Shown piece after piece: positions 29,726-51,633 of a DNA stretch of 64,000 nt. The notes beneath the pieces were generated by a model that was given only the letters and a program-made list of their open reading frames with translations, searched no databases and was not told where the DNA came from. This DNA is from a bacterium (GTDB lineage: Bacteria; Patescibacteriota; Minisyncoccia; Phycocordibacterales; CAIZLB01). The stretch spans positions 10,614-74,613 of the forward strand of contig JANOAN010000003.1 of assembly GCA_031411135.1 (NCBI GenBank). The letters are read 5' to 3'. A program made the translations under genes and the position numbers. The first letter of the stretch is position 1. Each line of letters begins with the position of its first letter.

Positions 29726-29759
29726 AGTTGGTGTTTTGTTGGGGTTTGAGTTGTAAGGT

Positions 29760-29816
29760 TCTTCTGTTTCGCTCTGTTGAGCTCGTCAGGCAAGATTCAT
29801 CTTGCGACAGAGAGGA
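29760..29816 (-). ncRNA. type III hammerhead ribozyme, copy 2
   Basis: Minus-strand read: CUCUCUGUC^GCAAGA-UGAA-UCUUGC CUGACGAG CUC-AACA-GAG CGAAAC AGAAG. The core is intact. Stems I and II differ in sequence from copies 1 and 3 but stay paired. Predicted cleavage is after C at 29806. Confidence 0.85.
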
Positions 29817-29842
29817 TTTTAAGGTTCCTCGAACCTGCGTTC

Positions 29843-30073
29843 TCACCCCTCCACAAAGTGGAGTAGGTGAACCTCGTGCTCCTTGTTTTTCCTCTCGAGA
29901 TGCTTGACCAGTTCAAGCTGCTCGTGAGGAATCCTTGGAGTGAACCTGTGTGGTTCAGCTGAGGTGCCAGGTGCTGCGGGCTCTGACTTTGAACACTGTT
30001 CAAAGTTTCGAGTGCGCAGTTCCTGATTCCACTCGTGGCGAATCCGTTGGTGGCGGGCTTGTTTGTGGTTCAT
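29843..30073 (-). CDS. hypothetical small basic protein (hammerhead operon gene 1)
   Basis: A 76 aa ORF taken from MNHKQARHQ at 30073. The longer track ORF, which starts at 30118, would begin inside the ribozyme. The ATG lies 17 nt after hammerhead 3. Confidence 0.4.
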   Translation of the reverse strand: MNHKQARHQRIRHEWNQELRTRNFEQCSKSEPAAPGTSAEPHRFTPRIPHEQLELVKHLERKNKEHEVHLLHFVEG

Positions 30074-30090
30074 AGTGGTGGTTTGTAAGG

Positions 30091-30163
30091 TTCGCTGTTT
30101 CGTCCTGTCTGCACACATGTGCAGTAGACTCGTCAGGCAAGGTCACACCTTGCGACAGGCGGT
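30091..30163 (-). ncRNA. type III hammerhead ribozyme, copy 3
   Basis: Minus-strand read: CCGCCUGUC^GCAAGGU-GUG-ACCUUGC CUGACGAG UCU-A-CUGCAC-AUGU-GUGCAG-AC-AGGA CGAAAC AGCG. The core is intact. Predicted cleavage is after C at 30154. Confidence 0.85.
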
Positions 30164-30494
30164 TTTGAGGCGGTTTCAGAGCTACCTCGCCGTACCATGT
30201 GGGTTCTTCCCCATGGATTCAGCAGCTCCTACTCCCGCCCTTGACGCTGTGCCGCGCACAACGCTTGTCTGCTTTTTGCCAGACAAGTGGCTTTTTACCG
30301 ATTCGGCCTCCTCAGTGGTTTGTTTGCGTGATCTGGTACTTTGGAGGTCCAGTCAGGTTTGAGCCACTTAGACTCTTCGACTCGCACCCTCTGTGCCTAG
30401 TCGCCGTTCCTCGGTAGGGCTTCGCCAGCGAACCCTTGACCTTTTGTAAGGTGCCTTTTCTGCAGAAGACTATACTTGACACAACTAAATAATG
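30164..30494 (-). other. ORF-free GC-rich structured leader RNA region upstream of hammerhead 3
   Basis: No credible ORF on the minus strand (only a 10-codon ATG ORF). Several perfect local hairpins: CUUGUCUG-GCAAAAAG-CAGACAAG, UGUGC-GCG-GCACA, CCAUGGGG-AAGAA-CCC-A-CAUGG and GGG-UUCG-CUGG-CGAA-G-CCC. The 5' limit is only inferred from a weak promoter. Confidence 0.3.
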
Positions 30495-30500
30495 CTTGTA

Positions 30501-35688: not shown

Positions 35689-35775
35689 GGAGGAGTGGCA
35701 GAGTGGTCGATCGCAACAGTCTTGAAAACTGTAGTCCTCGCAAGGGGACCGTGAGTTCGAATCTCACCTCCTCCG
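35689..35775 (+). tRNA. tRNA-Ser (anticodon TGA)
   Basis: Acceptor GGAGGAG/CTCCTCC, anticodon stem-loop ACAGT-CTTGAAA-ACTGT, a long variable arm, and T-arm GTGAG-TTCGAAT-CTCAC. Confidence 0.9.
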
Positions 35776-35840
35776 CACGCAAAAAACAGCTCAGAATATG
35801 GGCTGTTTTTTGTTTATCCAGGTGAGATTCGAACTTTTGG
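35768..35840 (+). repeat. att-like repeat copy 1 (tRNA-Ser 3' end + hairpin + inverted T-arm fragment)
   Basis: CTCCTCCGCACGCAAAAAAC, a hairpin, then TGTTTATCCAGGTGAGATTCGAACTTTTGG. Its parts recur at 37231..37320, 37871..37920 and 38630..38665. Confidence 0.7.
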
Positions 35841-35944
35841 TGTTGACTTATTGCATTTTAGTGATATAAATGTGAAGAATTTTCAAGTACTTTAAAATCA
35901 GTGCTTGGGCTTGGAAGAAAGACTGTAATTGACTTGCTGGCAAT

Positions 35945-37138
35945 ATGCCAAGCGGATTATTGACTTTCACTCCAAACCCAACTCACTACAAAATGAAAAC
36001 AAATCATGCGGAGCCGATCGATCGGCTTATCCGTTCCTACGAAGCAACGATGCAGTTCATCACATTTATGATGTGGCTCTGGAGAAGAGGAGATACTGAC
36101 GGGAGGTTCACAGATCCTTTTTGGCAGAGAATCTTCAATGGGCCTGTGAAGAACTGGAAGGATCTTCGTAAAGCCCTCCTTCGAATTCACAGCGACGGCT
36201 TTGATAACGAAAAGTTTGCAGGTCCTTCAATCACGGAACATGCTCTTAGTCAGAAAGAATTTGAATTCGGACAGTCTCGGATGATTGCTTCTCGTGTCGC
36301 CGAATGGACAAGGTCATCACGTCGTGTTTACTTTGTCCCAACCGACCTCCAACTCTTGCTTTCGACGACGAGTCTCAAAGATGTAGATTGGTCAATGATC
36401 AATTGGCCGTTTGATTCATTTCTGATTTCCTTCGAAATTCCAGTCAAACATCGAGGCAAGCAGATCGACTCGGTGTTGGTATCAAAGGAGCGGGTGGGAG
36501 AACATAAGATTATGGTGATTGAAACAATTGCCACTGATCTCCCGACCATCGAGTCGGTATTCGTCGGAAACCAAATCCAACGAATTGAAACGGCTCTGAG
36601 GAAGGAAGATTTCGAATACGCATCCGAAAAACTTGGAGGTGCGTATACAAATCGGCTCGCCATTGGCGGTGGAGACATCTGGCTTGCAAGCGAAAAGACG
36701 TTCAAACCTGGCGGACTAGCAGAAAAATTCGAGAACTTAGGGGAAGATCCTGAGTCAAAAATTATCTTCCGATTAATGTTCGGGCTACTTCTATACCTAC
36801 AGTCTCGCCCTCACAAGGAGCTTGCACCAAAAGGATGGGAGCCTTCAGCATTCGAACGGTGCGAAGGTCCAGCAAAAGTCATACGCATCGAGTCAGAAGT
36901 GTGCATCGTAAAAAGCATCTACAAGCTGACTGACACTGAACGGTCTGTGTTAGGACCTGCACTCCGCGGTGGATACGTTGAGGTGTCCCCTCACCACCGT
37001 GAGGGACACTGGCGTCGCCCACCGGGTAAAGGTGATGATCCAAATCACCCAAAGACAGTCTGGGTCAGACCTACAATAGTCAGAGGAGATAAGCTTGTCG
37101 ATGGAACACTACCAGTCGGGAGCTCTGAAGTAGTGTAA
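35945..37138 (+). CDS. hypothetical protein (GC-rich island cargo)
   Basis: A 397 aa ORF (alternative start MKTNH at 35993) with the C-terminal motif VSPHHREGHWRRPPGKG. No family recognised. The antisense ORFs are judged to be artefacts. Confidence 0.55.
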   Translation: MPSGLLTFTPNPTHYKMKTNHAEPIDRLIRSYEATMQFITFMMWLWRRGDTDGRFTDPFWQRIFNGPVKNWKDLRKALLRIHSDGFDNEKFAGPSITEHALSQKEFEFGQSRMIASRVAEWTRSSRRVYFVPTDLQLLLSTTSLKDVDWSMINWPFDSFLISFEIPVKHRGKQIDSVLVSKERVGEHKIMVIETIATDLPTIESVFVGNQIQRIETALRKEDFEYASEKLGGAYTNRLAIGGGDIWLASEKTFKPGGLAEKFENLGEDPESKIIFRLMFGLLLYLQSRPHKELAPKGWEPSAFERCEGPAKVIRIESEVCIVKSIYKLTDTERSVLGPALRGGYVEVSPHHREGHWRRPPGKGDDPNHPKTVWVRPTIVRGDKLVDGTLPVGSSEVV

Positions 37139-37230
37139 ATGATGGTAATCCCATTCGGTGCCAGTAACGTGTAACTGGCATACCCACCTTTCTCGAGCGT
37201 TGTCTCGGGGGGTGGTTTTTATTTTACATA

Positions 37231-37320
37231 CCAAGTTCGAACAGCCTCCACGGTCCTCCGCACGCAAAAACCGCCCGAAAGGGCGGTTTGTTTTATCACA
37301 AGTGAGATTCGAACTTTTGC
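37231..37320 (+). repeat. att-like repeat copy 2
   Basis: AAGTTCGAACAGCCTCCACGGTCCTCCGCACGCAAAAACC, the hairpin CGCCC-GAAA-GGGCG, then TTTTATCACAAGTGAGATTCGAACTTTTGC. Confidence 0.7.
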
Positions 37321-37422
37321 GTAAATTATTGAACCACTACGGTAGTCTTTACTTTTAATAATTAAGTGGTAGTTTTAGATTGAACCCAGCACGCAAAACA
37401 ATAAAAACGGAGGTAACCAAAA

Positions 37423-37785
37423 ATGCAAAATTATGCACTCAGGTCTTTATGGAGACCATTAACGCCAGCACAACGAGGAATGATCCTCATGGCATATGAT
37501 CAATCGACACATGCTGACGTGTGGGAAGCGCTCAAGAGTGAAGAAGACCACCAAAGGGTCACTCTACTTTCACGAACAGTAGTCGAGGCTCACGTAGATC
37601 TGGCGCAAAATGATGACCCTGAACTCATGGTAGGAACCTCACTTGTGTCATCCAACTTTGCGGTGAGTTTCGTTCGCTGGTTTCGCGAATTGAAAGCCTG
37701 GAAAGAGTTAAGGTGGGATGACCCTCATCTGTTCCACACGCTTCTATCTCACGCCTGTGTCGCAAAAAAACTCGAAACGGTGTAA
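37423..37785 (+). CDS. hypothetical protein (GC-rich island cargo)
   Basis: A 120 aa ORF with an SD-like GGAGGU 9 nt upstream and a downstream terminator (CACCGCU-CUGACAA-AGCGGUG plus a U-tract). Confidence 0.5.
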   Translation: MQNYALRSLWRPLTPAQRGMILMAYDQSTHADVWEALKSEEDHQRVTLLSRTVVEAHVDLAQNDDPELMVGTSLVSSNFAVSFVRWFRELKAWKELRWDDPHLFHTLLSHACVAKKLETV

Positions 37786-37870
37786 CCGCACGATCAAAAA
37801 TATGGCTACGGCCTTCCCCGCACTGGACTGTGCCACCGCTCTGACAAAGCGGTGTTTTCTTTTTTATAAA

Positions 37871-37920
37871 AAGTTCTAACAACCCCCACGGTACTCCGCA
37901 CATTCGAACATTTTATCTAC
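37871..37920 (+). repeat. att-like repeat copy 3 (pseudo tRNA 3' end only)
   Basis: AAGTTCTAACAACCCCCACGGTACTCCGCAC closely matches the left part of copy 2. Confidence 0.6.
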
Positions 37921-37927
37921 AAAAAAT

Positions 37928-38608
37928 CTATTTTAAGCGCTTCTTATTTGGATTCAAAAAATTTTCCCTAGTCGCCACCCTTTTCCCTGTTTTTCTTTCA
38001 ATTTCCTTGCGGGCATTGCCTGAAACTCTACCGCCGTCCTTTGCATCTTTCTGAAGTAATGGAAATCCTTTAGAGTCTCTACTCCGAGAAAGCTCTGTTG
38101 TTGTTGCTTCTCCTAACATTGTGAGTATAAGTTCAAGCTCATTCATATGGTCTCGTGCATTATCCTGCTTTGAGATTTTTTTATAATCTTTTATTTCTTG
38201 AGCGGTCATTTCAAAAGTTCCTTTATATATTTCGTTTGTGAGAATTGCGAACTCAATACCTTCCTTCGCTTCTCTGTTTTTCCATTCATCAGTAAGAGTG
38301 TTGCGAACATTAATACCTCGAATTCTTTTAGCAATCCAATCTTCGTTGTGTCCTTTTTGCTCGTAAGTTTTCTTTGCTCGTAAAACAGCTCGTTCAGGGT
38401 CTTGTATTTCTTCTATTCGTTCCTGACCTACTTTTGCCAACCACAACTTAAATGGTTCTGCTTTCGATGAAGGAATGGCTTGTATGATACGAAAGATACC
38501 TGCCAAATTGGCACAATTTACCTTCTGAACCCATCCTTTCGTCTCTATTCCAAGGGGGGTGGCAATTTGCCCCCACCCTTTTGATAACTCCTCATCCCTT
38601 CTACGCAT
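37928..38608 (-). CDS. Bro-N / DinD-like (phage antirepressor-type) protein, apparently N-terminally truncated
   Basis: FRIIQAIPSSKAEPFKLWLAKVGQERIEEIQDPERAV..YEQKGHNEDWIAKRIRGINVRNTLTDEW is the conserved central region of DNA-damage-inducible protein D / BRO family proteins. The usual N-terminal segment is missing. Confidence 0.65.
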   Translation of the reverse strand: MRRRDEELSKGWGQIATPLGIETKGWVQKVNCANLAGIFRIIQAIPSSKAEPFKLWLAKVGQERIEEIQDPERAVLRAKKTYEQKGHNEDWIAKRIRGINVRNTLTDEWKNREAKEGIEFAILTNEIYKGTFEMTAQEIKDYKKISKQDNARDHMNELELILTMLGEATTTELSRSRDSKGFPLLQKDAKDGGRVSGNARKEIERKTGKRVATRENFLNPNKKRLK

Positions 38609-38629
38609 ATCCTTGATATACCCTTCGAG

Positions 38630-38665
38630 CTGTTTTTGTTTATCCAGATGAGATTAGAACTTTGA
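38630..38665 (+). repeat. att-like repeat copy 4 (right part only)
   Basis: GCTGTTTTTGTTTATCCAGATGAGATTAGAACTTTG matches 35804..35840 of copy 1, with two substitutions and two single-T deletions. Confidence 0.6.
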
Positions 38666-39297
38666 TATACTTAAATGGTATGGAGCATCTCCCATTAGAC
38701 ATAAAAAATTTCGGCTTTGTTCAAAGAGAAATCTGTAATGGTATTACTGTTAAATACAAATGTGGAAGAGATTTTCTTTATTATGCTCTACATTTTCTTT
38801 TACCTTCAAAATTCAATCCTGAAACTAACAATCCGCAAGAAATAGATAGAAATCACTTTTTTGGACTTACTGTTCCTGTATGGCTCGCTTGGACACAGCT
38901 GTAATTTTACAAAATGCCAACATTCTTAAAGAGGCTCTCTTTGGAATTAAAGATAAATGATGTGATAGTTACTAACTTTTTGAAATTTGTTTATGCAATG
39001 CTTTTCTCAAGAATATCTTATGAAAATGCCCTGGAAAGAATTGAAGGTAATGTGAAAAATGGATTGGTATCAGGTGTGGATTTGGCCTTACGATGGCAAG
39101 GGTTGGAAGACCACGTGCTTTTTGTGTATGGGTATGATGTAGATAATCTCTATGTGTTTGATACTAATAAAATTTCAAGACTTGAATATGAAAAGCTTAC
39201 TGATGATGAGCGATACTACATGAAACTACCAAAATCAGTAGTTAAAAACAGGTGGAAGACATTTAGTCGGGTGTGGGAAGTGTATAAAGTGAACTAA
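38662..39297 (+). pseudogene. gene interrupted by a single in-frame TAA (possible papain-like cysteine peptidase)
   Basis: ORFs 38662..38904 and 38914..39297 share a frame (offset 252 nt) and are separated only by TAA at 38902 plus 3 codons. A Cys candidate (KCGRDFLYYAL) sits in the first part and a His candidate (EDHVLFVYGYD) in the second. Confidence 0.45.
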
Positions 39298-39352
39298 TAG
39301 TGTTTAGACCGAGCTAAACTGATAGTAGTTTATATTCTGAATTATTTTTTAT

Positions 39353-39916
39353 CTAGTGCCCCACCTCCTGCAATTCATCATGCCCATAACCCTCACCTTC
39401 TGGTAATTGTTTTGCAATATAAAACAAAGCAACAAAAAGAATCAATCCTACTATTGTAATTTTTAAAAATCTTTTAAATGTAAATTCATTTCGATAATCA
39501 CGATAAATAAAAGACAAATATCCCAAGAAAACACCGAGTGGCAAAAGTATCGCTGCTACGAATGGACCATCTAGATAATGTTGCGTAGCACCACTCACCA
39601 TACCAGTTCCAATGGAAAGGATTGTTGAAAACCAAATGTATGGAATTAATTGTTTAAGTGACGATATCCCATGCTCAAGTATGTTTCCAATAACGAACAA
39701 TATGACACCTAAAATAATTAAAATTATGTATTTTGTTATATTTCCTCCAAGAGTCCCAGCATGCACGATCGAGCCGGAAATTAATCCAACACCTAAATAT
39801 TTAAACATATGAGAAACAAAAGATTTGGTAGAATTCATTTGGTTGGTGTTCATAGTTGAACCATTATATACCAAAATTTTCAAGTTGATACTGATTTTTA
39901 TAATAAGTTTGAACAC
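39353..39916 (-). CDS. polytopic membrane protein
   Basis: 187 aa with 5-6 hydrophobic helices. The start may lie at the internal MNTNQM. Confidence 0.5.
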   Translation of the reverse strand: MFKLIIKISINLKILVYNGSTMNTNQMNSTKSFVSHMFKYLGVGLISGSIVHAGTLGGNITKYIILIILGVILFVIGNILEHGISSLKQLIPYIWFSTILSIGTGMVSGATQHYLDGPFVAAILLPLGVFLGYLSFIYRDYRNEFTFKRFLKITIVGLILFVALFYIAKQLPEGEGYGHDELQEVGH

Positions 39917-39978
39917 CCTCCCCTACCAACAAAAAAACCACCCACATGGGCGGTTTTTTTGTTTTACTTACCCTGTCT

Positions 39979-40944
39979 TTATCTCCCTGTCGTAAACGAT
40001 CCTGTAGCAGAGCCTGACATGTTACCTGAAGCATCAGCACTTCTCACAGAGTAGAAATATGTTGTGCTCGAAGCTAAGCCTGAGACAGTTACATCATGAA
40101 GGAATACTCTATCAGACAAACTCACCGTGCTTGAACCAGTCACAACTACTGGACTTGATGTACTCACCCATACCCCACTGTCTGATCTTTCGTTAGTTAA
40201 CCAGAAGATGTGAGTAGACGAAGCGTTCGTGTTGTATGTTGTGCTGAAGTAAATACTTGGTGCAGTTACGTCCACTGAAGCAACCGCTGTAGTGTGGAAT
40301 CGCATAACTTTTGTCACTTTTGTATTCCCTGCAGAGTCCTTAGCTGTGACTGTGAAATAATACTGGGTATTAACACTAAGCCCACTTAACACAACAGAGT
40401 GACTTGTAGAAGTTGAAGTATCTACTACTACATTACTATTTACATCAACAATGGAACTTGTAGCAAATCGGACGTCCCCTGTTGTAGACGCATTAGTCTT
40501 CCAAGAGATTGTTGCTGTGGAAGTTCCGACACTTACCACATTAACATCCTTGATTACTGGGATAACCATATCTACAGTACTTGTAGAATGTTTCTTGAAG
40601 AATTTTCCAAACCAGTTTTGGAAACCACCATTCTCTAATTTCTTCTCTATTCCCTTTGGTAATCCTTTACCATCCTCTAATCTTTTCTCGATACCTCGTG
40701 GTAGCATTATTCCACTTGAAGCTGTGACTGTGGCATTGGCAGATGTTTGAACTCGGACTTCATCCTTATCATCATCGTCATGCTTGTCTTTTGATACGTT
40801 TGTATTTAGAGACACATTACCTAACAACCCCTTTGCATCCGCAACTGCAGGGCTCAAGCTCATGAGAACAAAAGCAAAGGAGGTCATGGTCGTGGCAATT
40901 ATTTTTAAGTTTTTCATTTTATTTTGCGAAATCATGTCGCGCAC
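39979..40944 (-). CDS. secreted protein with two fibronectin-III-like repeats
   Basis: Signal peptide (NLKIIATTMTSFAFVLMSLSPAVADA). Two repeats of the pattern ISWKTN..TGDVRF......TQYYFTVTAKDSAGN and IFWLTN..SGVWVS...TTYFYSVRSADASGN. Confidence 0.6.
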   Translation of the reverse strand: MRDMISQNKMKNLKIIATTMTSFAFVLMSLSPAVADAKGLLGNVSLNTNVSKDKHDDDDKDEVRVQTSANATVTASSGIMLPRGIEKRLEDGKGLPKGIEKKLENGGFQNWFGKFFKKHSTSTVDMVIPVIKDVNVVSVGTSTATISWKTNASTTGDVRFATSSIVDVNSNVVVDTSTSTSHSVVLSGLSVNTQYYFTVTAKDSAGNTKVTKVMRFHTTAVASVDVTAPSIYFSTTYNTNASSTHIFWLTNERSDSGVWVSTSSPVVVTGSSTVSLSDRVFLHDVTVSGLASSTTYFYSVRSADASGNMSGSATGSFTTGR

Positions 40945-41133
40945 CGTCCTTTAAAGCGCGACTGACTTTATTTTGTATTTAGGCTTATAATTCGTCTCTA
41001 ACACAATAAAAGACGCTGGGTACTATTTCTTCTTACTCAGCAGGTAGACATCTGTAAATAAGCGGTTTACTATAGACCACAAGAAGGGGTGTTATTTCCC
41101 GGCAATCAAAACCACACTTCTTCGTCTTAACAA

Positions 41134-41652
41134 ATGGAGGAAATACAAAATAACTTTTTAGAGGCATACAATACCTACTCGGACTCTATCTTCCGATTCT
41201 GTCTTTTTAAGTTGAGCGATCGGGAAATTGCAAAAGATTTTATGCAAGACACTTTCACCAAAACTTGGATGCTAGTTTCGAAGAAAAAAGTAGAGATTAA
41301 GAGTCTCAAAGCCATTCTTTACAAGATAGCCGGAAATTTGATTATCGATGAATACAGGCGACGAGGAAGACGCGGACTAGCAGCGTCACTCGACGTCCTC
41401 CACGAAGAAGGATTCGACCTTTATTGTGACGAAACATCTTCCATGATGGACCATATGGATGGAAAAAAGGCAGTCTCATTAATCTCAAAAATCCAAGAAC
41501 CGTATGGCGAGGCAGTATTCATGCGATACGTTCAGGGATTGGAGCTCGACGAAATGGCAGAGATTACTGGGGCTTCCGAAAACACCATGTCAGTGAGGGT
41601 GCACAGAGGAATTTCAATACTAAAAAAACTTTTTAATAAAGAAAATGAGTAA
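41134..41652 (+). CDS. ECF-type RNA polymerase sigma-70 family factor
   Basis: Region 2 (FMQDTFTKTW, IAGNLIIDEYRRR) and a region 4 HTH (LDEMAEITGASENTMSVRVHRG). Confidence 0.8.
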   Translation: MEEIQNNFLEAYNTYSDSIFRFCLFKLSDREIAKDFMQDTFTKTWMLVSKKKVEIKSLKAILYKIAGNLIIDEYRRRGRRGLAASLDVLHEEGFDLYCDETSSMMDHMDGKKAVSLISKIQEPYGEAVFMRYVQGLELDEMAEITGASENTMSVRVHRGISILKKLFNKENE

Positions 41653-42802
41653 AAACAATCAAAACAATCAAATACAGGATCACGAAATGCATGAAGATAT
41701 TCATAAGCTTTTTTCTATAGCCAAAGAGGAGTCGCTTTCTCATGATGAAAAAAAACAAGGGGCGATAGATTTTAAGAACTTTATGGAAAAAAATCCAAAC
41801 AGAGGTGTTTCAATGGTAAGTCCTTATATAAAAAATCTTTTCATTAGCACTTTCAAATTTGTTAAACAGCGACAATTAGTAGCTATAGCCTTAGCGGTGA
41901 TTTTGGTATTAGGAGGATCTAGTGGGACTGCGTATGCAGCGGTCAATTCCCTCCCGGGAGATTTGCTTTACCCGATAAAGATCAATATTAATGAAAAACT
42001 TGAAAGTGTTTTAGCTAGAGGCACAGAAGCCAAGGCGCGAGTTGCTGTAAAGCATGCCATAAATCGAATAGAGGAGGTTGAAAAATTGGCGGTTGCCGGT
42101 AAACTAGAAAAATCGAGTGAGGGTTCTGTTTCTGCCACTTTGGCTTTACAGTCAAAAGTAGTTCAGGAGAATATCTTAAAACTTAAAACAGAGGGAAATG
42201 TAGAAGCGGCAATAGTTATCAGCTCAGATTTTGAAAATTCATTGAATGATCATAAAAAGAATTTGGCAAATCTAGTTAAGAACAGTAGGGACACCGCGAG
42301 GGACCTTTTGGTAAAGACTAGTGAAAATATACATGACAATATATTAGCTGCCGCGAAGGAACGCTTGATACTTGAGGACAGTCTTTCAACATCAAACCAA
42401 ATCACTGTCAATAAAAAAATTGCCAATGACGAATTAATTGCTTCTCAGAAAAAAATTAAGAAAATCGAGGGTGCTGTTAATGCATCTCGCAACATAGATA
42501 AAGATATAAAAGATACTTTGAAAAATGCTGTGAAAACTGTTTCTGAAAGCGAAGAGAAGATAAATGTAGGGGCATACAACAATGCAGTTGTCTTACTCAA
42601 AGACGCCAAGGAGAATACCGATAAGCTGGAGGAGGAATTTAAGAAATCACCCATCGATTATTCAAAATCTGGTAAGACGCCCATACCTACAAGCACTGCA
42701 ACCCCCACTTCTTCAACTTCAGTGGATGGTAGTAGCAGTTCCACAATTAATATTCAAAATAATAACTTACCCATCCCCGTTCCATCAGTTCCTAGATTGT
42801 GA
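41645..42802 (+). CDS. putative anti-sigma / membrane-anchored coiled-coil protein
   Basis: Overlaps the sigma gene stop. Has one TM helix (LVAIALAVILVLGGSSGTAYA), a long helical ectodomain and an S/T/P-rich tail. Confidence 0.45.
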   Translation: MSKNNQNNQIQDHEMHEDIHKLFSIAKEESLSHDEKKQGAIDFKNFMEKNPNRGVSMVSPYIKNLFISTFKFVKQRQLVAIALAVILVLGGSSGTAYAAVNSLPGDLLYPIKININEKLESVLARGTEAKARVAVKHAINRIEEVEKLAVAGKLEKSSEGSVSATLALQSKVVQENILKLKTEGNVEAAIVISSDFENSLNDHKKNLANLVKNSRDTARDLLVKTSENIHDNILAAAKERLILEDSLSTSNQITVNKKIANDELIASQKKIKKIEGAVNASRNIDKDIKDTLKNAVKTVSESEEKINVGAYNNAVVLLKDAKENTDKLEEEFKKSPIDYSKSGKTPIPTSTATPTSSTSVDGSSSSTINIQNNNLPIPVPSVPRL

Positions 42803-42979
42803 CTCAGTAATAAATTTTCAGATATTAAGTAATTTCTTTATACATCAACGAAATCTGCCCCCTCACTACCCCAAGCCCCCTTCACAACTTTTTTATTTTT
42901 ATTTATCTCCAATATTGTATCTTTGTGACTAGATACATATTCAATATGTCTATGTACATAAAACAACCTCAAAAATACC

Positions 42980-43291
42980 ATGAATGCAATACTCGAAACT
43001 CCGCTGTCGATCAAAGAACTGGCCATAAAGCTTTTTAAAGGAAGCTTTCACACGTTCTACACACTGTCACCCGAATTCCCTCAAACACCAGATGTTTACA
43101 TGTGCTGGATCGGTGAATGCCGAAACCATGCCATTGGATTAGGACTCCGCAATATCCGTGGATCTGTGCTTCCTTTCTTTGGATGCAAAGATTGCCTACG
43201 GAGATTTAACGGAATCGTCTCTGATGATGTTCCTCCGATGAAGACTTCCCTACTGGCCTTCGACGGAACACCTATGAGGAAAAACATCTAG
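42980..43291 (+). CDS. hypothetical Cys-containing small protein (GC-rich orphan)
   Basis: A 103 aa ORF followed by a strong terminator at 43292..43346. Confidence 0.45.
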   Translation: MNAILETPLSIKELAIKLFKGSFHTFYTLSPEFPQTPDVYMCWIGECRNHAIGLGLRNIRGSVLPFFGCKDCLRRFNGIVSDDVPPMKTSLLAFDGTPMRKNI

Positions 43292-43346
43292 CGCCCACCA
43301 TTCAACACGAGCCCCTGTCGTTTGATGGTGGGCTTTGTGTTTTTAT
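43292..43346 (+). terminator. intrinsic terminator
   Basis: CCCACCAU-N23-AUGGUGGG followed by CUUUGUGUUUUU. Confidence 0.6.
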
Positions 43347-43432
43347 ATAAATTAAATTTTATAACTTTTTAATCTTTTATTCATATCGTATTGTTACATT
43401 GACACCACATATCCAAAGTATATACTTCGGAT

Positions 43433-43702
43433 ATGAAGAAAACCATGCTTAGTATTAAAATAGATTCGAAACAGAAACAAGAAGCCAAAAAAACCGCTGA
43501 GGCTTTAGGGATTCCTCTTGGAACCATTATCTCTGCCCTACTGCGACAGTTTGTGAGGGACAAAGAAATAAATCTTTCGATCCCTCTCAAGCCTTCAAAA
43601 TACTTGAGAGATTCTATCAAGGAAGCGGAGGAAGAATATGCTTCTGGAAAGTTAAAACCTTATAAAGATATTGACGAATTATTCAAAGAATTGAACGTCT
43701 AG
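43433..43702 (+). CDS. type II antitoxin, RelB/DinJ-like
   Basis: An 89 aa ORF with an RHH-like N-terminus (LSIKIDSKQKQEAKKTAEALGIPLGTIISALLRQF). Lies immediately upstream of the toxin. Confidence 0.7.
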   Translation: MKKTMLSIKIDSKQKQEAKKTAEALGIPLGTIISALLRQFVRDKEINLSIPLKPSKYLRDSIKEAEEEYASGKLKPYKDIDELFKELNV

Positions 43703-43708
43703 CGACTT

Positions 43709-43972
43709 ATGAAAATAATCATATCGTCAACTAAATTTAAAAGAAAGGTTAAAAAGTTATCACCTAAAATCCTTCTCCTTATTAAAGAAAAGGTTGCTAT
43801 TTTTAGAGAAAATGAATTCGACCAAATTTTAAACAATCACAAGTTGAGTGGACTCTATATAAACCGTAGAAGTATAAATATTACCAGCGATATTAGGGTT
43901 ATTTATAGAAAAGTCTCTGAAAATATGTACCTTTTTCTGACTATCGGCACCCACAGCGAACTGTACTCTTAA
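43709..43972 (+). CDS. type II toxin, RelE/YafQ family mRNA interferase
   Basis: An 87 aa ORF with NHKLSG...SINITSDIRVIYRK....LFLTIGTHSELY, the typical C-terminal signature of the family. Confidence 0.75.
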   Translation: MKIIISSTKFKRKVKKLSPKILLLIKEKVAIFRENEFDQILNNHKLSGLYINRRSINITSDIRVIYRKVSENMYLFLTIGTHSELYS

Positions 43973-43975
43973 AAA

Positions 43976-46900
43976 CTATCGCCTTATTTTCTTTACATAC
44001 GAAATAATCAGAATTGCGATAAAGATAATCAGAAGGACCAACACTGTATTGAGAAGCCATGAATATTTTTCGCTAAATGGTACGACGGCGACAAATGGTT
44101 TGTATTCTGGATTACTAAGTACACCAGATACAACAACCGTTGAAAGGTCTTTTTGCTTTAATGAAGTGTTTTGTAAAACAGTATCGATATCATAAACTGG
44201 TGAATTCAGATTTCCTCCAAAATATAAATAGAATGGCCCGGAACTTCGAGGTACAAAAGTAAGGACTGCTGCAGGAGAGTTAACCATAACTTTTGATTCT
44301 AAATTAAGTGGCTGATTATCTTGGTTATCAATGATAATTTGATAGTGCGACGCCTTAATCATTGGAAAGTTGATATGGAGACTTTCCAGTTTAGTACCAT
44401 CTTCTTTTGAGAAGGAATAGATGCTACCACCCCCAACTTCATACCACACTCCACTTGGGCTTGCGATAATGTTTGAATAACTACCAATCCCCCCTTCTAC
44501 AAAATCGTTTTTAACTTGCAATCTTATGTTTCGGTAAAAATTAGTCGAAGAGCCAATAAGGTCAATCCCATTTGCTAAAATCCCCTTATCTTTAAAATCA
44601 AAATAAATTTCAGTTGTCTGATTTTTTTCATTCTGAACTATTTTTACGTCTTTTGGGACAGAATTTTCCTTAAGTCCTGAAATCAGGGCTGATTGTGTGG
44701 CAAATCCAAATATGCCCACTTTTTTTGGCCTAAAATTAAGTAGACTATTATTAAAACTTACATCATTTTTAATTGAGCTGTCCTGATCAAAAGGTATCAA
44801 GACTACTTTTAAAAACCTTGAATTACTCGGTTCGTATGAGATTGTTGCATTCCCTACAGATTGCTTTGTGGCAGCATCGTAAAAATTAAAAATATATTGA
44901 GGTTTCTCTTCTAGAGATAATTGTCGCCAATTACTACTATCAAGAGAAAGGGATGTGTCTGATCCATACACCTTTACAATATAGCGGAAATTATTTTGAG
45001 ATGCTGTATCTACAAATCTAAGTACATTGTGTGTTAAAAATGTCTTGTCTTTATTATCTAGTATAAATTCAAGGTGTCTATTTCTTTCTGAAAGATTCTG
45101 CACGTCCAAATCTACAAACTCTGATGTGTCCCCGAACGACGAATAATTCAACGTATACGGCACCTGCACTCCGATTCCTGTGAAAACTCTGATATCAGAA
45201 ATGTTACTTTTCTCCTGCACATCAGCTGGGATGATCAATCTTGTAGGTCTCCCTTCAACAATCGAAGCTGAGCTTATTTCTGCACGATAAGGAGAAGCCT
45301 CGATAATCTCTTTATCAGTGGCCGCAAATGTAGAATTTGGAATAGATAATAACCCTAGCAAAAGCAATGAAACCGCCCCTGTCTTTAATTTGTCTTTATA
45401 CTTTGCATAAATAAATGATGCAAAAAGTGCAATAACTCCAAAAACCAGTGATGTTATAATTCGATAAACTGGTCCGAGATCCCAAACATCTACAAATATC
45501 TTAACCGCGGTAACTGCCATCAAAACCATTCCTGTTGTTCTAAACCATTTACTCTTCACAGAAAAACCAATCCCAATTGAAATCAATGCGTACAAGATCC
45601 ACACAATATCTACTGCTGTATTCTTTTGATTTGAAAGACTTCTAGTCACAGTAGAGAGGTCTAATTTTTTTTGCTGAAGCTCTGTTTGGTAATCTTGAGT
45701 CTGTCCTTCCGTCATTGCATTACTACTATTATAAGTATTGCTTGCGTAATAATTCTGTTGCAGTTGTGCTATTTCTTTATTTAAAGATTCAGTCTTAACA
45801 TAAATCTTACTTGAATACAGCTGTGATGTTTCAGATGTTAGTATAAAAATACTAGCAACCTGAGCAATTACAAAGTAAACAGCCACCAAACTCTTTGTTC
45901 CTTGTGTTACATCCACCCCCTCTTTTACGGCCTTATTAAGAATAAACGCCAATACATACGCAGTGACAATTCCTACTAAGAAAATAAAGAACCTCTCGTT
46001 CCACAAGAAATTAAATGCTTTACCGTAAACCATACTGTCCACATATCTTACGAATGTATACAAGGCGCTTACCACGAAAACAATTGAGCCATAGGCGTAC
46101 AGATTTTTACCTTTTAAATTGTAATCGAGTGCATACATAGCCACAGCCTCTACAAACCACGCGAGAGCAATCCAAGGTCCATCTAATTGTGCTGGAATTG
46201 CTAGTGTGAGAAACAAAGCTGACATAGCCGGTAAAAACATGTTCAGTAATTTATTTTCCTTATTCGTCTTGAACGAAAGTAATGCGATTGCAAAATACAA
46301 CATTGCCATCAAAATCATGAAAAATCCCATGAAGTTTTTGAAGGGTTCATACAATAATGAATAAGTTACTGTCGCATAACCCAAAGCGTTCACAACAATA
46401 ACAGCAAGGTCTGTAGAGTCTGACATTTCTTTTCGAATAATGTGATGGAATATTGAGGACAAAAGAAAAACTACAAAATACAGGAATAAGAAAAAGCACA
46501 TTCCAAGTCTGTCAGCTTTTTCATATAGATTCGTAAAGCACATAAAGACCAGAAGCCATGTGCCCGCAAAGGCGGTCGTTGTTAGCTTTCTCCATTTATA
46601 AACATATGCGACGACCATAACACCAACATCGAGAATTAAGATATATGTCAAAACCTGAGAAAGTGACGCGTTCGAAAGTGTCATAAATATAGGAGTCAAA
46701 AATCCACCAACTACTCCGATCATAGCCAAAACCATCGCGTTATCCACCACACTTAACACAACTGATAGGGCCGAAATACCAATAAGAAGTCCGTACGCTA
46801 CAGGGCTTGAAACAAGATGATAGAAAGCAAAACTTGCAAAAGTTGTTAGATATAAAAGTCCAATACCACAACCCATCAAAATGTTTGAATATGCCCGATA

Positions 46901-47356: not shown

Positions 47357-47373
47357 TGTTACAATATTAACAA

Positions 47374-47847
47374 ATGAAGAAAGATCCTATTACATGGCAC
47401 AACCATGAATACGAACATAGAGAAAAAAGTCGTGACTGGTTCTTTGCTGTCGGAATCATTACGGTATCGGCCTTTATAATTGCAATTCTCTTTAACAACT
47501 ACATTCTATCAGTACTAATCTTACTTGGAGGTTTTTGCATGATTCTCTTTGGTAACAAAGAACCTAATCATGTCCGGTTTGAAATCAATGGGGCTGGAAT
47601 AATTATTGATAAAACCCTTTATCCATTTGGAACCCTACATTCTTTTTGGGTGGAAAATAATGACCACATTGAAATGCCATCGATGCTTTTTATTCGTTCC
47701 AATAAAGCACTGGTTCCTTTAATTCATATACCTATGATTTGGGATGTTGATCCAGAAATAGTTAGAAATCATCTTTTAGAACATATACCCGAGGAGGAAC
47801 ACTCGGGATCAGTTTCTCATAGGATTATGGATTATATTGGTTTTTAG
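47374..47847 (+). CDS. two-TM membrane protein, hypothetical
   Basis: 157 aa with a hydrophobic hairpin (WFFAVGIITVSAFIIAILF / LSVLILLGGFCMILF) followed by a soluble domain. Confidence 0.5.
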   Translation: MKKDPITWHNHEYEHREKSRDWFFAVGIITVSAFIIAILFNNYILSVLILLGGFCMILFGNKEPNHVRFEINGAGIIIDKTLYPFGTLHSFWVENNDHIEMPSMLFIRSNKALVPLIHIPMIWDVDPEIVRNHLLEHIPEEEHSGSVSHRIMDYIGF

Positions 47848-48723: not shown

Positions 48724-48798
48724 GCTCTCGTCGTTCAATGGATAGGACGTAACTTTGCGGAAGTTATGATACAGGTTCGATTCCTGTCGAGAGCACCA
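48724..48798 (+). tRNA. tRNA-Arg (anticodon GCG) with encoded CCA
   Basis: Acceptor GCTCTCG/CGAGAGC, anticodon stem-loop TAACT-TTGCGGA-AGTTA, T-arm ACAGG-TTCGATT-CCTGT, and a 3' ACCA. Confidence 0.8.
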
Positions 48799-48870: not shown

Positions 48871-50268
48871 CTAACTTTTAGGAAGGATACCTTCTTTTTG
48901 CTGTTTTTGATTGGGCTGACTTACAGGAGGTGTGTCTTTCAACAGCTCATCTGATTCAGTCTTATCAACAGATATCTTTCCATCTTTCAAAATCAATTTG
49001 CTTTTCAGGTTTACTAAAACATGACGTTGTTCGTAAATGTTGCCATCTTTCAGGAGAAACTTCATATATTTTTTGATATCAATATCTCCTAATTCCTTAC
49101 TCTCAAATCCACCTGGATCACCGATGACATCTCTGTGAAAACGATACATTCGATTTACATCCATATCCATCTGTCCTCGTACGCCGAGTTCGTTAATGGA
49201 TAATTCATCAACTATCTCACAGAGTGATTTTATGAGATCCTCCTCACGGATATATGTCATAGGACAATGATGATCTTTTGTCCTTGAACAACCATAATAG
49301 ACGTATCTCATAATAGTTCCGTCTTTCAAAGCTTTAAACTTTTCTTCAGCAGTAACACTTGAACCACAGAGTCCGCATTTAATTAAATGTGTGTAAGCAA
49401 AATCTTTTTTGTAAATCCGTGTCGCTCGTTTTTTCTTCTTCATTTCTTCTCGCACTTTATCAAAAAGTTCCTTTGTGATGAGTGGTTTATGTACACCATG
49501 GTACCAATTACCGCTTTTCTTAGGGTACTCAAACATGCCGTAATAAAAAGTTCTAGTGAGAGCTAGTTGTACACCACTTAATGCAATATGTTTTCCGTTT
49601 GGTGATCTAAAGTCTAGTTCATCAGTAAGCCAATCTCGTATACGATGTTGACTCCAACCCTCGGACGCTTTTTCAAACATCATTTGGACTATGTGTGCTC
49701 GAACTGGATCTATCTTCACAATACCTCGATTACCTTTCTCTCCAACATTCGTGTATCCCAAAGGTGCAACCCCTGGCCACAACCCTTTTTCTACAAGAGT
49801 TCTCAAACCTCTTTTTACATTTATACCTTTAGTATCATTTTCAAGTTTTGCTTGTGATCCAAGAATCATGAGTAGAAATTTCTCGTTAGGTGAGTTAGAA
49901 AAGTTTTGATTATATGTCCTGATTTCTAAAAGTTGCTTACTATCCATAAGATCAATCAGTCTACCTAGATCACCTGCATTTCGGCTAAGTCTATCTGGAT
50001 GCCACGTAAGGATTGCATTGTATTTTCCAGCCTTTATCTCGTCGATCATTTTATTAAAAACTTCACGCTCACCAGAATTTTTAGCTGAGTGGGCTTCAGT
50101 TTTTACTGTCACTACTGAAAGATGATCTCGTTCGGCAAGTTTATTCATCTCACTTATCTGAGATTCAATTGACAAAGCTTGTCGTTCTTCGTCCTCGCTA
50201 GATTTTCTGGCGTAGAGGCAGTAGATGAGGGCTGGAGATGGCACTTCTTTTACAGCAGAGTTTTCCAT
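48871..50268 (-). CDS. large serine recombinase (resolvase/invertase N-domain + recombinase + zinc-ribbon)
   Basis: YARKSSEDE catalytic Ser region, PDRLSRN, a recombinase domain, and a Cys cluster (CGLCGS...YYGCSRTKDHHC). Confidence 0.85.
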   Translation of the reverse strand: MENSAVKEVPSPALIYCLYARKSSEDEERQALSIESQISEMNKLAERDHLSVVTVKTEAHSAKNSGEREVFNKMIDEIKAGKYNAILTWHPDRLSRNAGDLGRLIDLMDSKQLLEIRTYNQNFSNSPNEKFLLMILGSQAKLENDTKGINVKRGLRTLVEKGLWPGVAPLGYTNVGEKGNRGIVKIDPVRAHIVQMMFEKASEGWSQHRIRDWLTDELDFRSPNGKHIALSGVQLALTRTFYYGMFEYPKKSGNWYHGVHKPLITKELFDKVREEMKKKKRATRIYKKDFAYTHLIKCGLCGSSVTAEEKFKALKDGTIMRYVYYGCSRTKDHHCPMTYIREEDLIKSLCEIVDELSINELGVRGQMDMDVNRMYRFHRDVIGDPGGFESKELGDIDIKKYMKFLLKDGNIYEQRHVLVNLKSKLILKDGKISVDKTESDELLKDTPPVSQPNQKQQKEGILPKS

Positions 50269-50309
50269 AACTCATATTTTAATAAAAATACAGATGGAAA
50301 TCTAGATAT

Positions 50310-51629
50310 TTATTCCATCATCAGCTTCTTATCCTTCAGCAATATTCTACTCTTAATACAACTTAGCACTTCTCGCTTCTGCAACATCGTCCCGTGCTGA
50401 AGCATATGCTTTGCAAATGTTTTGATTGATACGTCTTTGTGCTTCTTCGATTGCCCTAGATCCACCCCAAGCACTCCAGTCTGGAAAAGTGCATATCGTG
50501 CCACTTCTTCTTGAAGCTTCTGCTTCAGTTCTGATTTATCCATGCTCATCTTGTCTATTATCGGTAACATCTCTGATATCAATATATCCTCTTTCACTGA
50601 CTCGTTCGGACAGTCTCGATCCTTCAATTTGGTGCACCTGTAGTAGACATGAGCGTTGAAACCACCATCCTTCAATTCCTTGATCTTCTCCTCTGCTGTT
50701 ATGCCCGATTCGCAGTAGGCACAGTGGAGCATTCTGGTGAAGGCAAACTCTCTGCCGTAGGCTTTTTTCTTCTCAACCCTGATTTTGTCCTGCACCAGAT
50801 CGAAAAGTTCCTTGGTGATGATCGGTGTATGCTTGCCTGTATACCAGTCACCGCTTCCAACAGGATATTCAAACACTCCGTAGTAGAAGGTCAGCCTTAA
50901 TATTCGGTAGATATTACCTAATGTCATCGGCTTGTTGCCTCTTGTTACAAATTTCACATCTTTGAGCCACCTATATATCTTCCTACCAGAGTAGTTTTCA
51001 GTGGCTACTTTTTCAAATATTTCTTTTATGAGTGGTGCTCTTACGGGATCAACTTCCACCTGACACTTTTTATCCACATTTTTGCTGTTTAGGTATCCAG
51101 TTGGTGCTGTGCATGGCCAGAGTCCCATCTGGCATCTTGCCCTTAGGCCTCGCTTCACATTTACCACCTTATTGTCGTTCTCAAGCTTTGCCTGTGATCC
51201 TAGAATCATGAGCATAAATTTCTCATTCGGCGTGTTGCTGAACTTTTGTCCATAGGTGCGTATCTCATGAAGCTTCTTCTGATCCATCAAGTCTACGATT
51301 CTTCCAAGATCACCTGCGTTTCGTGCAATTCTATCAGGTGCCCACGTCAGTATTCCATTGAACTTACCCTGATTGATCTCATTCACGATTTCGTTGAACA
51401 CTGGTCGTTGCCCCGCTTCCTTGGCAGAATGCGACTCTTGTTTTCTTGCCACAATCTCTAATCCCTCATTAATCGCCATCTTCTCCATTTCCCGTATCTG
51501 GCTATCAATGGAGAGTACCTGCTTATCCTCCTGTTCTGTACTTTTCCTTGCGTAAAGCACGTATTTAACCCTTACAGGGATTGATATTTTGGCCTCCATC
51601 CCCACTGGCCTTTGTATTGTATGATCCAT
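50310..51629 (-). CDS. large serine recombinase, paralog of 48871..50268
   Basis: YARKSTEQE, PDRIARN, and a Cys cluster (CAYCES...YYRCTKLKDRDC). The start may be the second Met (MEAKIS, 51599), which aligns better with the paralog's N-terminus. Confidence 0.85.
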   Translation of the reverse strand: MDHTIQRPVGMEAKISIPVRVKYVLYARKSTEQEDKQVLSIDSQIREMEKMAINEGLEIVARKQESHSAKEAGQRPVFNEIVNEINQGKFNGILTWAPDRIARNAGDLGRIVDLMDQKKLHEIRTYGQKFSNTPNEKFMLMILGSQAKLENDNKVVNVKRGLRARCQMGLWPCTAPTGYLNSKNVDKKCQVEVDPVRAPLIKEIFEKVATENYSGRKIYRWLKDVKFVTRGNKPMTLGNIYRILRLTFYYGVFEYPVGSGDWYTGKHTPIITKELFDLVQDKIRVEKKKAYGREFAFTRMLHCAYCESGITAEEKIKELKDGGFNAHVYYRCTKLKDRDCPNESVKEDILISEMLPIIDKMSMDKSELKQKLQEEVARYALFQTGVLGVDLGQSKKHKDVSIKTFAKHMLQHGTMLQKREVLSCIKSRILLKDKKLMME

Positions 51630-51633
51630 ACCT

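Follow-up and report, generated by a model that had tools for sequence, protein, structure and literature searches.

Three small modules bounded by attachment-like repeats stand in tandem behind tRNA-Ser(TGA) in a Patescibacteria genome

Behind the tRNA-Ser(TGA) gene of a Patescibacteria contig, parts of the tRNA end and of its downstream sequence recur around three GC-rich cargo modules, which raises the question of how such an array was formed. The window analysed here is a stretch of 64,000 nucleotides (assembly GCA_031411135.1, contig JANOAN010000003.1, positions 10,614 to 74,613), and the array lies at 35.7-38.7 kb within it. An initial annotation of this DNA had described att-like repeats around the three modules and no recombinase among them, and had read the locus as the footprint of repeated site-specific integration into the 3' end of the tRNA gene. 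The layout was confirmed with ARAGORN, Rfam and a comparison of the repeats, and no recombinase open reading frame (ORF) was found at 35.7-38.7 kb in the ORF list or in Pfam and PHROG scans. In our judgement, the array is rather probably a tandem stack of three tiny integrative modules without a recombinase, partly decayed and moved in trans, at a tRNA-Ser(TGA) hotspot.

The tRNA-Ser(TGA) gene is intact (35689..35776, plus strand; Rfam tRNA score 55.5 bits), with the T-arm GTGAG-TTCGAAT-CTCAC and the 3' acceptor strand TCCTCCGCA, and the array begins at its last base, 35776. Four copies of a composite unit of ~85 nt (A 35754-35840, B 37231-37319, C 37871-37913, D 38630-38665) lie at its 3' side and bound module 1 (35840..37230, plus strand), module 2 (37320..37870, plus strand) and module 3 (37914..38629, minus strand). 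Unit A is made up of the T-arm and acceptor strand of the tRNA gene itself, followed by a trailer (35777..35839, plus strand) in which a terminator-type hairpin (~35780-35812) is succeeded by TTTGTTTATCCAG and by an inverted T-arm, AGGTGAGATTCGAACT(TTTG), at 35820-35839. The observation that the right part of the repeat is the reverse complement of the T-arm held exactly: positions 35754-35769 and 35820-35835, covering the T-loop and the 3' T-stem strand, are complementary at 16 of 16 positions. Below, '(<-)' denotes such an inverted T-arm copy, and '(->)' a right-end motif with acceptor-like sequence. Folded as single-stranded DNA (ssDNA), 35750-35842 is predicted to form a two-tier hairpin (-27.5 kcal/mol, z = -9.2).

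Unit B (plus strand, as are C and D) consists of the '(->)' sequence AAGTTCGAACAGCCTCCACGG (37233-37253), the acceptor-like TCCTCCGCACGCAAAAA (37254-37270), a hairpin (37268-37289) and the '(<-)' copy GTGAGATTCGAACTTTTG (37302-37319). It shares two exact blocks with unit A, one of 17 nt (TCCTCCGCACGCAAAAA, 35769-35785 and 37254-37270) and one of 18 nt (GTGAGATTCGAACTTTTG, 35822-35839 and 37302-37319), and the hairpins between these blocks differ. As a direct repeat of the RNA 3' end, the 17-nt block is confined to A and B; unit C has TACTCCGCAC at this place and unit D lacks the part altogether. Where the T-arm would stand, unit B carries AAGTTCGAACAGCCTCCACGG, 5 nt longer than the real tRNA sequence, and the T-arm part of both B and C is this longer variant, not a copy of the local tRNA. 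Exact identity among the repeats of the window begins at the acceptor strand, with the TTCGAA core lying 11 nt further left in B and C. Units B and C have 47 nt in common at 81% identity (37217-37263 and 37855-37901). In unit C the '(->)' sequence is AAGTTCTAACAACCCCCACGG, followed by TACTCCGCAC and by a remnant of the right part, ATTCGAACATTT (37902-37913), that is absent from the initial annotation; the hairpin of this unit is gone. Unit D is a right half only, formed by the 3' half of an A-type terminator, TTTGTTTATCCAG and ATGAGATTAGAACTTTG, with 94% identity between 38633-38663 and 35807-35837. It starts in the middle of the terminator stem, exactly at the point where the gene of module 3 is truncated.

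Within the 64 kb, the 26-nt right part and the 16-nt motif CCACGGTCCTCCGCAC were found only in this array, which disposes of the concern that the repeats might be generic sequence occurring elsewhere in the window; shuffled sequences predicted 0.00 and 0.12 matches, respectively. The GC content of the array segment is 0.45-0.52, against ~0.31-0.40 in the flanks and ~0.35 for the genome. Since the motifs are local to the array, shuffles predict 0-0.1 matches and the GC content is atypical, the repeat array is taken as a real observation. Hallmarks of a transposon or a miniature inverted-repeat transposable element (MITE), namely target duplication, a transposase or dispersed copies, were absent from the window, and the inverted similarity at module ends extends over only ~10 nt centred on TTCGAAC.

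Related contigs supplied the insertion polymorphism that the initial annotation had proposed to look for. A public contig, L001 (SRR20217193), is 100% identical to window positions 35747-38580. By contrast with the window, a 1.4-kb contig from another sample (L012; SRR22387955), which starts in the tRNA T-arm, passes from the tRNA and an A-type trailer (L012:1-90, 95.6% identical to window 35749-35839) straight into module 2, which is followed by a full-length unit C (C') and by module 3, the identity to window 37254-38556 being 84%. Module 1 and unit B are missing, a difference of 1480 nt bounded by the 18-nt exact direct repeat GTGAGATTCGAACTTTTG. Because the A-type terminator adjoins tRNA-Ser in both states, a single event relating the two would have had its crossover in the inverted T-arm block and not in the tRNA gene. 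Serial integration at the tRNA 3' end is therefore retained as a horizontally gained stack at a hotspot and revised in that the crossover of module 1 would map to the 18-nt inverted T-arm block.

A more distant relative, the 34-kb contig L011, keeps the same synteny of PilM, a tRNA-binding protein and RuvX, with a PilM only 46% identical to that of the window, and its tRNA-Ser(TGA) is followed by module 2 alone, whose DNA is 83.6% identical over 591 nt. In a three-way alignment of the window, L012 and L011, the module 2 block starts at TGAGATTCGA and ends ..GTTCGAACARCC.. / GTTCGAACARCCYCMAC..TCCTC, and the flanks are unrelated. As the module is better conserved than its hosts and occupies the same site with the same ends, we infer horizontal transfer of a unit of ~0.6 kb. 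Atypical GC content, the lack of module 1 in L012, the presence of module 2 only in L011 and the different cargo of other relatives all speak for horizontal acquisition.

The ends of the modules recur beside other cargo as well. In contig L023, whose PilM is ~45% identical, a perfect direct repeat of 50 nt, made of the tRNA end and trailer, encloses an island, with ATGTTCGAACAGCCTCAACAG immediately before the distal copy; a second '(->)' site there, TACATAACAAGTTCGAACAGCCTCAACGG, matches unit B of the window at 27 of 29 positions beside unrelated cargo. The right-end motif AAGTTCGAACAGCCTCMACGG was found in a third distant genome, and the element-end motif A[AT]GTTCGAACAGCCTCMACRG stands directly upstream of the repeat in the window (twice), L012, L023 (twice) and L011. 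Given the 27/29 match in L023, the pseudo 3' ends of units B and C are a conserved element-end motif and not decayed local copies; the proposal that they were displaced ends of the local tRNA had to be abandoned.

The inverted T-arm is likewise not peculiar to this tRNA. An inverted copy of a tRNA's own end, defined as at least 11 nt of its own last 30 nt within 200 nt downstream, follows 14 of the 103 tRNA genes surveyed in the window and in loci L002-L046. The tRNAs concerned are Ser-TGA, Arg-TCT, Arg-GCG, Val and Ala, with 0/19 for Leu and His taken together. Reversed or complemented sequence and the upstream side each gave 0, and mismatched tRNA pairings ~2.5; since the loci are related by descent, the 14 copies do not amount to 14 independent events. 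In L042, for instance, the T-arm is GCGAG..CTCGC and inverted copies (GCGAGATTCGAA) lie at +75, +1871 and +2399, and in L007 an inverted tRNA-Ala T-arm, GAGAGGATTCGAACC, stands 54 nt behind the tRNA and ahead of a homologue of the module 1 gene. The inverted copy usually comes after a terminator, and an inverted acceptor strand and a hairpin often precede it. As several tRNAs and T-arm sequences are involved, the inverted T-arm is a systematic feature. Two origins had been suggested for it: its tracking of the local T-arm elsewhere indicates that it is probably part of the recombination site, and the other, a remnant of a convergent tRNA, was rejected, with identity stopping after CTCACCT and no acceptor strand beyond, and with no convergent tRNA at the tRNA-Ser locus in any relative.

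The order PilM...RuvX-tRNA-Ser(TGA) is kept across 29 syntenic loci fetched from Paceibacteria, Parcubacteria and Taylorbacteria metagenome-assembled genomes (MAGs). L017 and L038 count as close relatives of the species in the window, sharing PilM at 80% identity or more. Behind the tRNA, the relatives carry Shedu, restriction-modification, ORF6N and caspase genes, and some loci have nearly no cargo. Six of the 29 contigs (L017, L018, L019, L027, L031 and L044) break off inside the tRNA or at most 120 nt past it, and L001 and L012 also begin in the tRNA-Ser T-arm; the locus is thus a systematic assembly breakpoint, consistent with strain heterogeneity. The usual downstream neighbours in relatives, a 157-aa gene and tRNA-Arg(GCG), lie 1.4-4.8 kb away and are found in the window at 47374 and 48724. 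The 157-aa gene (47374..47847, plus strand) was matched by tblastn in L011, L024, L025, L030, L032, L033, L035, L039 and L045, and because it is the conserved right flank, all of 35777-47373 is variable relative to the relatives. Genes at 38.7-47.4 kb, which include a sigma/anti-sigma pair, a DUF2339 protein and others, have a counterpart in none of the 29 loci. Unit D is therefore not the outer edge of the variable region, and an empty site of the kind initially predicted, with the tRNA followed directly by the flank at 38666, was not found among the relatives.

Which enzyme could act on such sites? A Pfam scan of 37 window ORFs recovered no recombinases other than a tandem pair of large serine recombinase genes (48871-50268 and 50310-51629; 48871..51629, minus strand) with Resolvase, Recombinase and Zn_ribbon_recom domains, which are convergent with tRNA-Arg(GCG) (48724-48798) and lie 13 kb from the array; no member of the tyrosine recombinase / Phage_integrase family was matched among these ORFs. 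Homologues of large serine recombinases were detected by tblastn 0.5-2 kb behind tRNA-Ser, in convergent orientation, in L020, L021, L026, L038 and L040. When 41 ORFs of at least ~200 aa behind tRNA-Ser in relatives were scanned with Pfam, large serine recombinase families were matched by two members (L020 and L026), and these were the only recombinases, with no Phage_integrase, in the 25 commonest of 57 families. In L038, the 3' end of the recombinase gene abuts a '(<-)'-like word, 10 nt after the TTTGTTTATC known from the window. The link between the array and serine recombinases is circumstantial. In L040, the serine recombinase gene behind tRNA-Ser has on both sides a perfect 90-nt inverted repeat (1871-1969 and 3355-3449) made of the last tRNA bases and trailer, which looks like an invertible or inverted-duplicated segment.

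The modules themselves are each a single gene of the kind carried by mobile elements. The gene of module 1 (ORF 35945-37138, 397 aa) has its own terminator at 37189-37212, found by a terminator scan, and a promoter-like TTGACT-16-TATAAA upstream (35843-35870, recognised by eye). Its protein (P0001) had been called an orphan, but it has 41 database homologues, and a precomputed, unmarked PF26125 (AcrVA2-like) label at E <= 1e-5 is attached to the 381-aa product and to 38 of the 41; this 381-aa form stems from the database gene call, which begins 16 codons later, at 35993. A local Pfam search gave no match for the 397-aa protein, its library apparently lacking the PF26125 model, and a local PDB sequence search with single or profile query gave nothing. 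An AlphaFold model (pLDDT 77, pTM 0.80) was then compared by fold search, and the top three PDB matches were the AcrVA2 crystal structures 7ci2_A, 7ci1_A and 7ci1_B (probability 0.99-1.00, E 1e-3 to 4e-3, TM 0.35-0.46), with all others below 0.1 probability; the best viral matches are uncharacterised phage proteins. Judging from family label and modelled fold, the 397-aa protein is AcrVA2-like and its gene a putative anti-defence gene. AcrVA2 is an anti-CRISPR that reduces Cas12a mRNA levels (bioRxiv 10.1101/2022.11.29.518452). An exact-product look-up had no record of the 397-aa and RuvX proteins as delimited here, though one member of the homologue cluster, P0045, is 397 aa long. In another Patescibacteria genome (L004), a 98-nt direct repeat of 96% identity (9728-9825, 11341-11438) stands on either side of an AcrVA2-like homologue behind tRNA-Ala(TGC), with further partial copies at 12663 and 13260, a cassette-like layout whose repeats differ from those of the window; L005 and L006 are similar.

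Module 2, delimited by the homologue search and the three-way alignment, holds a 120-aa gene (37423-37785) with its own terminator (37834-37854). With three homologue clusters its protein, also called an orphan at first, is nearly one; identity is 89% in L012 and 75% in L011. Module 3 encodes a 5'-truncated phage regulator of Bro-N / phrog_15286 type (ORF 37928-38608), identified with Pfam and PHROG. The truncation stands as originally noted: the protein covers positions 55-92 of 96 of Bro-N (26.9 bits, cut-off 25.6) and 73-271 of 274 of phrog_15286, so that the BRO N-terminal domain is incomplete, with ~50-70 N-terminal residues gone and the C-terminal three quarters left. Its upstream in-frame stop falls within unit D, and the copy in L012 is 93.5% identical. 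Right after unit D, at 38662-39297, two neighbouring same-strand ORFs of 80 and 127 aa without a family match may be one interrupted gene.

Taken together, these data suggest the following model. Each module in this Paceibacteria-type (Patescibacteria) genome comprises one gene, with its own terminator in modules 1 and 2. The cargo is of mobile-element type, with a putative anti-defence gene (AcrVA2-like) in module 1, a 120-aa gene in module 2 and a Bro-type regulator from a phage in module 3. The left end of each module would be a '(<-)' site, an inverted copy of T-loop and T-stem joined to CTTTTG, and the right end a '(->)' site made of the conserved AAGTTCGAACAGCCTCMACGG, the acceptor-like TCCTCCGCA and the hairpin of a trailer. 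Circular modules would be inserted at T-arm-like sites by a site-specific recombinase acting in trans, the likeliest enzyme being a large serine recombinase such as those at the tRNA-Ser site of relatives and behind tRNA-Arg in the window. A dimeric serine integrase binds two inverted half-sites, and if an attP that rebuilds the tRNA tail needs an inverted imitation as its second half-site, this may explain why the inverted T-arm exists and tracks the local tRNA. Decay would then have removed the hairpin of unit C, and one deletion would have truncated both module 3 and unit D.

The exact point of exchange can be narrowed to two descriptions. In our reading of the sequences, the junctions all centre on the palindromic T-loop core TTCGAA. 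The tRNA T-arm (B|B') divides into the halves CCGTGAGTT[CG]AATCTCACCT; in the '(<-)' site, rc(B'), the reverse complement of B', is joined to AACTTTTGG, and in the '(->)' site CCAAGTT is joined to AAC(AGCC)TC(C)ACGGTCC, a right half that resembles rc(B). As the two inner halves are mutually reverse complementary, a circularised module 1 would carry the near-palindrome ACATACCAAGTTCGAACTTTTGGTGT. Under one description, which fits L011, an inverted pseudo-T-arm has simply received each module in its T-loop; under the other, which fits the comparison of L012 with the window, a cassette carries the whole unit and recombines at the '(<-)' block. The exact crossover would be one or the other of these. 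The predicted junctions are ACATACCAAGTTCGAACTTTTGGTGTTGACTT for a circle of module 1 and TTTATCCAGGTGAGATTCGAACAGCCTCCACGG for the site emptied of it, TTTATCACAAGTGAGATTCGAACTTTTGGTGTTGACTT for a circle of module 1 with unit B and CCAGGTGAGATTCGAACTTTTGCGTAAATT for the site emptied of both, and the predicted palindromic substrate site is CCAAGTTCGAACTTTTGG.

The relatives also contain 'mini-inserts', GC-rich stretches of 100-130 nt without ORFs, which separate a Ser, Ala, Val or Arg tRNA from a duplicate of the tRNA's final 19-21 nt (L011:9647-9822, L043, L044, L036, L002:4567-4715, L007:6620-6800, L042, L024, L028, L029 and L032). Their right junction is always ...GTGAC|CGAAT.. or its T-loop equivalent, and some are homologous across tRNAs and genomes. 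Identity of the duplicate always starts at the CG of TTCGAA/TTCGAT (L011, L002, L007, L036 and L029), as in the 21-nt repeat of L011, CGAATCTCACCTTCTCCGCAA, and the 19-nt repeat of L002. Such geometry matches what has been described for the ssrA islands of Dehalococcoides (PMC3146451), which are compared below. Rfam returned only sub-threshold noise for the L011 mini-insert. These mini-inserts could represent miniature integrative elements devoid of genes, or what is left where the ends of a deleted element have fused.

Several observations weigh against a stack of modules moved in trans. The presence or absence of module 1 hinges on one 1.4-kb contig, and the layout around module 2 is identical in six further L011-type contigs (97.6% identity), where it is fixed and shows no visible mobility. 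The assembled contigs compared yielded no circular junction, no excision product and no true empty site. The search of viral contigs with end motifs gave nothing relevant: TGAGATTCGAACTTTTG had four matches, all in the same unrelated phage coding sequence and attributable to chance, the right-end motif had none, and no phage with a matching attP was found. A scan of a genome collection for the unit returned 0 matches among species representatives, which apparently do not include the genome of the window, and a metagenome scan returned one locus, L046, behind a different tRNA-Ser. There, tRNA-Ser(CGA) has a T-arm of its own that differs, yet the same TGAGATTCGAACTTTTG follows and an ordinary-looking gene adjoins, as if an element had left the window-type word behind. 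Simple serial insertion does not predict that unit D resembles unit A (94%) while B and C differ. In the sequences compared, recombinases and end motifs have no demonstrated link. Large serine recombinases need only 2-bp identity, and to our knowledge recombination between two identical hybrid sites is not something they normally carry out; an exchange between two identical '(<-)' sites, or homologous exchange, is what the module 1 difference resembles.

The strongest competitor, which we regard as possible though doubtful, is that the units were never mobile as such and are dead scars, the now fixed remnants of larger integrase-bearing prophages or islands in the tRNA-Ser 3' end that were eroded by deletions. 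Module 3 is indeed a truncated phage gene whose truncation point coincides with that of unit D, the hairpin of unit C is missing, the layout of the L011-type species is invariant over seven contigs, and integrase-bearing elements do occupy tRNA-Ser in relatives, the one in L038 looking degraded. Independent erosion would not, however, arrive at the same boundaries, and module 2 recurs in three genomes as one ~0.6-kb unit whose two end motifs are shared, standing alone in L011, whose host has diverged far more than the module; nor does erosion sit well with module 1 and one unit differing as a clean block or with an end motif kept at 27/29 beside the unrelated cargo of L023. Homologous recombination, with the trailer units as short homology for RecA-type exchange, Campbell-type insertion and deletions and the inverted T-arm as a by-product, would be in keeping with the 18-nt exact direct repeat around the module 1 difference, the perfect 50-nt repeat of L023 and, as a Campbell-type duplication, the resemblance of A and D. 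We judge it improbable, for it leaves unexplained the end motifs kept between hosts with ~45% identical core proteins, the inverted copies that match the local T-arm at several tRNAs and the mini-insert identity that always starts at the CG of TTCGAA.

Very unlikely, in our view, is an integron-like origin in which the ~85-nt units are attC-type sites folding as ssDNA and served by a tyrosine integrase elsewhere in the genome. The long imperfect hairpin of unit A (z = -9.2), the 9-bp outer stem in the centroid structure of unit B, the gene-sized cassettes and an array without integrase, as in clusters of attC sites lacking integron-integrases (CALINs), would all suit it. The unit ends are nevertheless AAGTTCGAAC and ATTCGAACTT and not the R''/R' consensus RYYYAAC / GTTRRRY, the outer stem is not kept in unit C, unit C' of L012 or L023 (z = -1.6; inner hairpin only in L023), and L046 conserves the sequence of the motif rather than its pairing; modules 1 and 2 have terminators of their own, and tyrosine recombinases are missing from the scanned window ORFs and the listed hotspot families. 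Least credible of all is a purely regulatory reading, in which the units would be repeated terminators or promoters of an ordinary kind and play no part in mobility. Each does contain a terminator-type hairpin, and TTCGAA with a downstream -10-like box in L046 can, in our reading, be taken as a promoter, but the motifs do not recur in the remaining 61 kb of the window, the hairpins differ while the flanking motifs are conserved, and the motifs mark the edges of blocks that are present or absent or horizontally shared.

Further features were noted around the array. From tRNA-Arg(GCG) onward, 48724-56616 holds the recombinase pair, a KAP-family NTPase (52126-54897), an N4/N6 methylase and a D12 methylase, and has the look of a defence island that became integrated; no far end could be located, the only candidate, an inverted 10-mer at 55665, lying in a methylase gene motif and being put down to chance. 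In the L011-type species, a LAGLIDADG-type ORF lies between RuvX and tRNA-Ser (L011:8743-9596, L047:3800-4864), intact (354 aa) in L047 and L048 and split into three ORFs in L011; the window lacks it and has a gap of 50 nt. At 29750-30500 of the window, the minus strand of a GC-rich (0.55) patch without long ORFs matches the type III hammerhead ribozyme twice (29761-29813 and 30093-30161, 332 nt apart), with scores of 41.2 bits (E ~1e-7) and 25.6 bits that are both below the Rfam gathering score of 48.5. The CUGA.GAG / CGAAAC / GUC core is intact in both, and they could delimit a ~330-nt hammerhead-flanked unit. A LOOT RNA match at 57906-58045 scores 52.7 bits, above the Rfam gathering score.

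How genes are acquired by Patescibacteria (the candidate phyla radiation), whose genomes are tiny, is little understood. If a stack of modules moved in trans is the right reading, single-gene modules, including an anti-CRISPR-like gene, move between distant members and accumulate behind one tRNA; their conserved end motifs are directly searchable, and such stacking would also account for the frequent breaking of metagenome assemblies of the group at tRNA-Ser. Should the link to serine recombinases prove true, the Dehalococcoides type of island mechanism discussed below would extend to tRNA genes of another phylum, the inverted T-arm copies behind many tRNA genes in the group would be accounted for, and short natural attachment sites for compact serine integrases would become available. 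A bolder and speculative extension, which we think unlikely but worth stating, is an integron-like platform of Patescibacteria in which modules of gene plus terminator use near-palindromic TTCGAA sites and a serine recombinase in trans, with inverted T-arms behind tRNAs (14% of surveyed tRNA genes) as docking sites; stockpiles of anti-defence and defence genes would then lie behind several tRNAs.

How does the array compare with known systems? In classical tRNA prophages and islands (for example mycobacteriophage Ms6; Williams 2002), the integration site is a symmetric T-arm core, the 3' end is restored and the displaced fragment is left as a direct repeat. Their tyrosine integrase adjoins attL/attR, whereas the array has no such gene, its pseudo 3' ends are a conserved variant 5 nt longer, and an inverted T-arm stands at the other junction. 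Integron arrays and CALINs resemble it in their gene-sized cassettes, marked off by imperfect palindromic sites of ~60-140 nt, and in sometimes having no integrase nearby; unlike them, the array lacks an attC consensus or a conserved fold, has its own terminators, is anchored at a tRNA and has no IntI that was found in the ORFs scanned.

Closer parallels are offered by elements that stack. Cis-mobilizable elements (CIMEs) of the ICESt1/ICESt3 family are flanked by att sites, have no recombination genes, are stacked at one att site and would move only with a recombinase from a neighbour. The array shares with them the att-like flanks, the lack of recombination genes and the tandem stacking, but CIMEs have attL and attR sites of a known tyrosine integrase that were shown by experiment to be functional, whereas the array is known from sequence alone and is much smaller. 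Arrays of staphylococcal cassette chromosome (SCC) and pseudo-SCC elements at the 3' end of rlmH in staphylococci use CcrAB large serine recombinases and stand in tandem with repeated att sites, and some lack ccr and receive the recombinase in trans; they differ in target gene and recombinase clade, reach tens of kb and show no imitation of a tRNA.

Although SCC-type arrays deserve mention, the closest precedent is provided by the ssrA islands of Dehalococcoides, which insert in tandem in mid-T-loop, with 20-bp direct repeats and a conserved motif upstream of each (PMC3146451). Their large serine recombinase is encoded on the reverse strand beside attL (PMC3146451), and islands without an integrase have been proposed to be cis-mobilizable (McMurdie et al. 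2011, PMC3146451). As there, the modules stand in tandem behind one small RNA gene with an element motif upstream of the repeats, and parts of the RNA 3' end recur at boundaries of the array. A recombinase gene adjoining attL on the strand opposite the RNA gene is lacking in the array, where none of the three modules has an integration module, but is found in five relatives and at tRNA-Arg in the window. The target here is a tRNA and not tmRNA, the modules are one-gene units of 0.6-1.5 kb and not multi-gene islands, and the inverted T-arm at each left boundary is absent from the published description of those islands (PMC3146451). New with respect to all of these systems are the very small single-gene units, the inverted T-arm junction behind several tRNAs clade-wide, the host phylum and the AcrVA2-like cargo.

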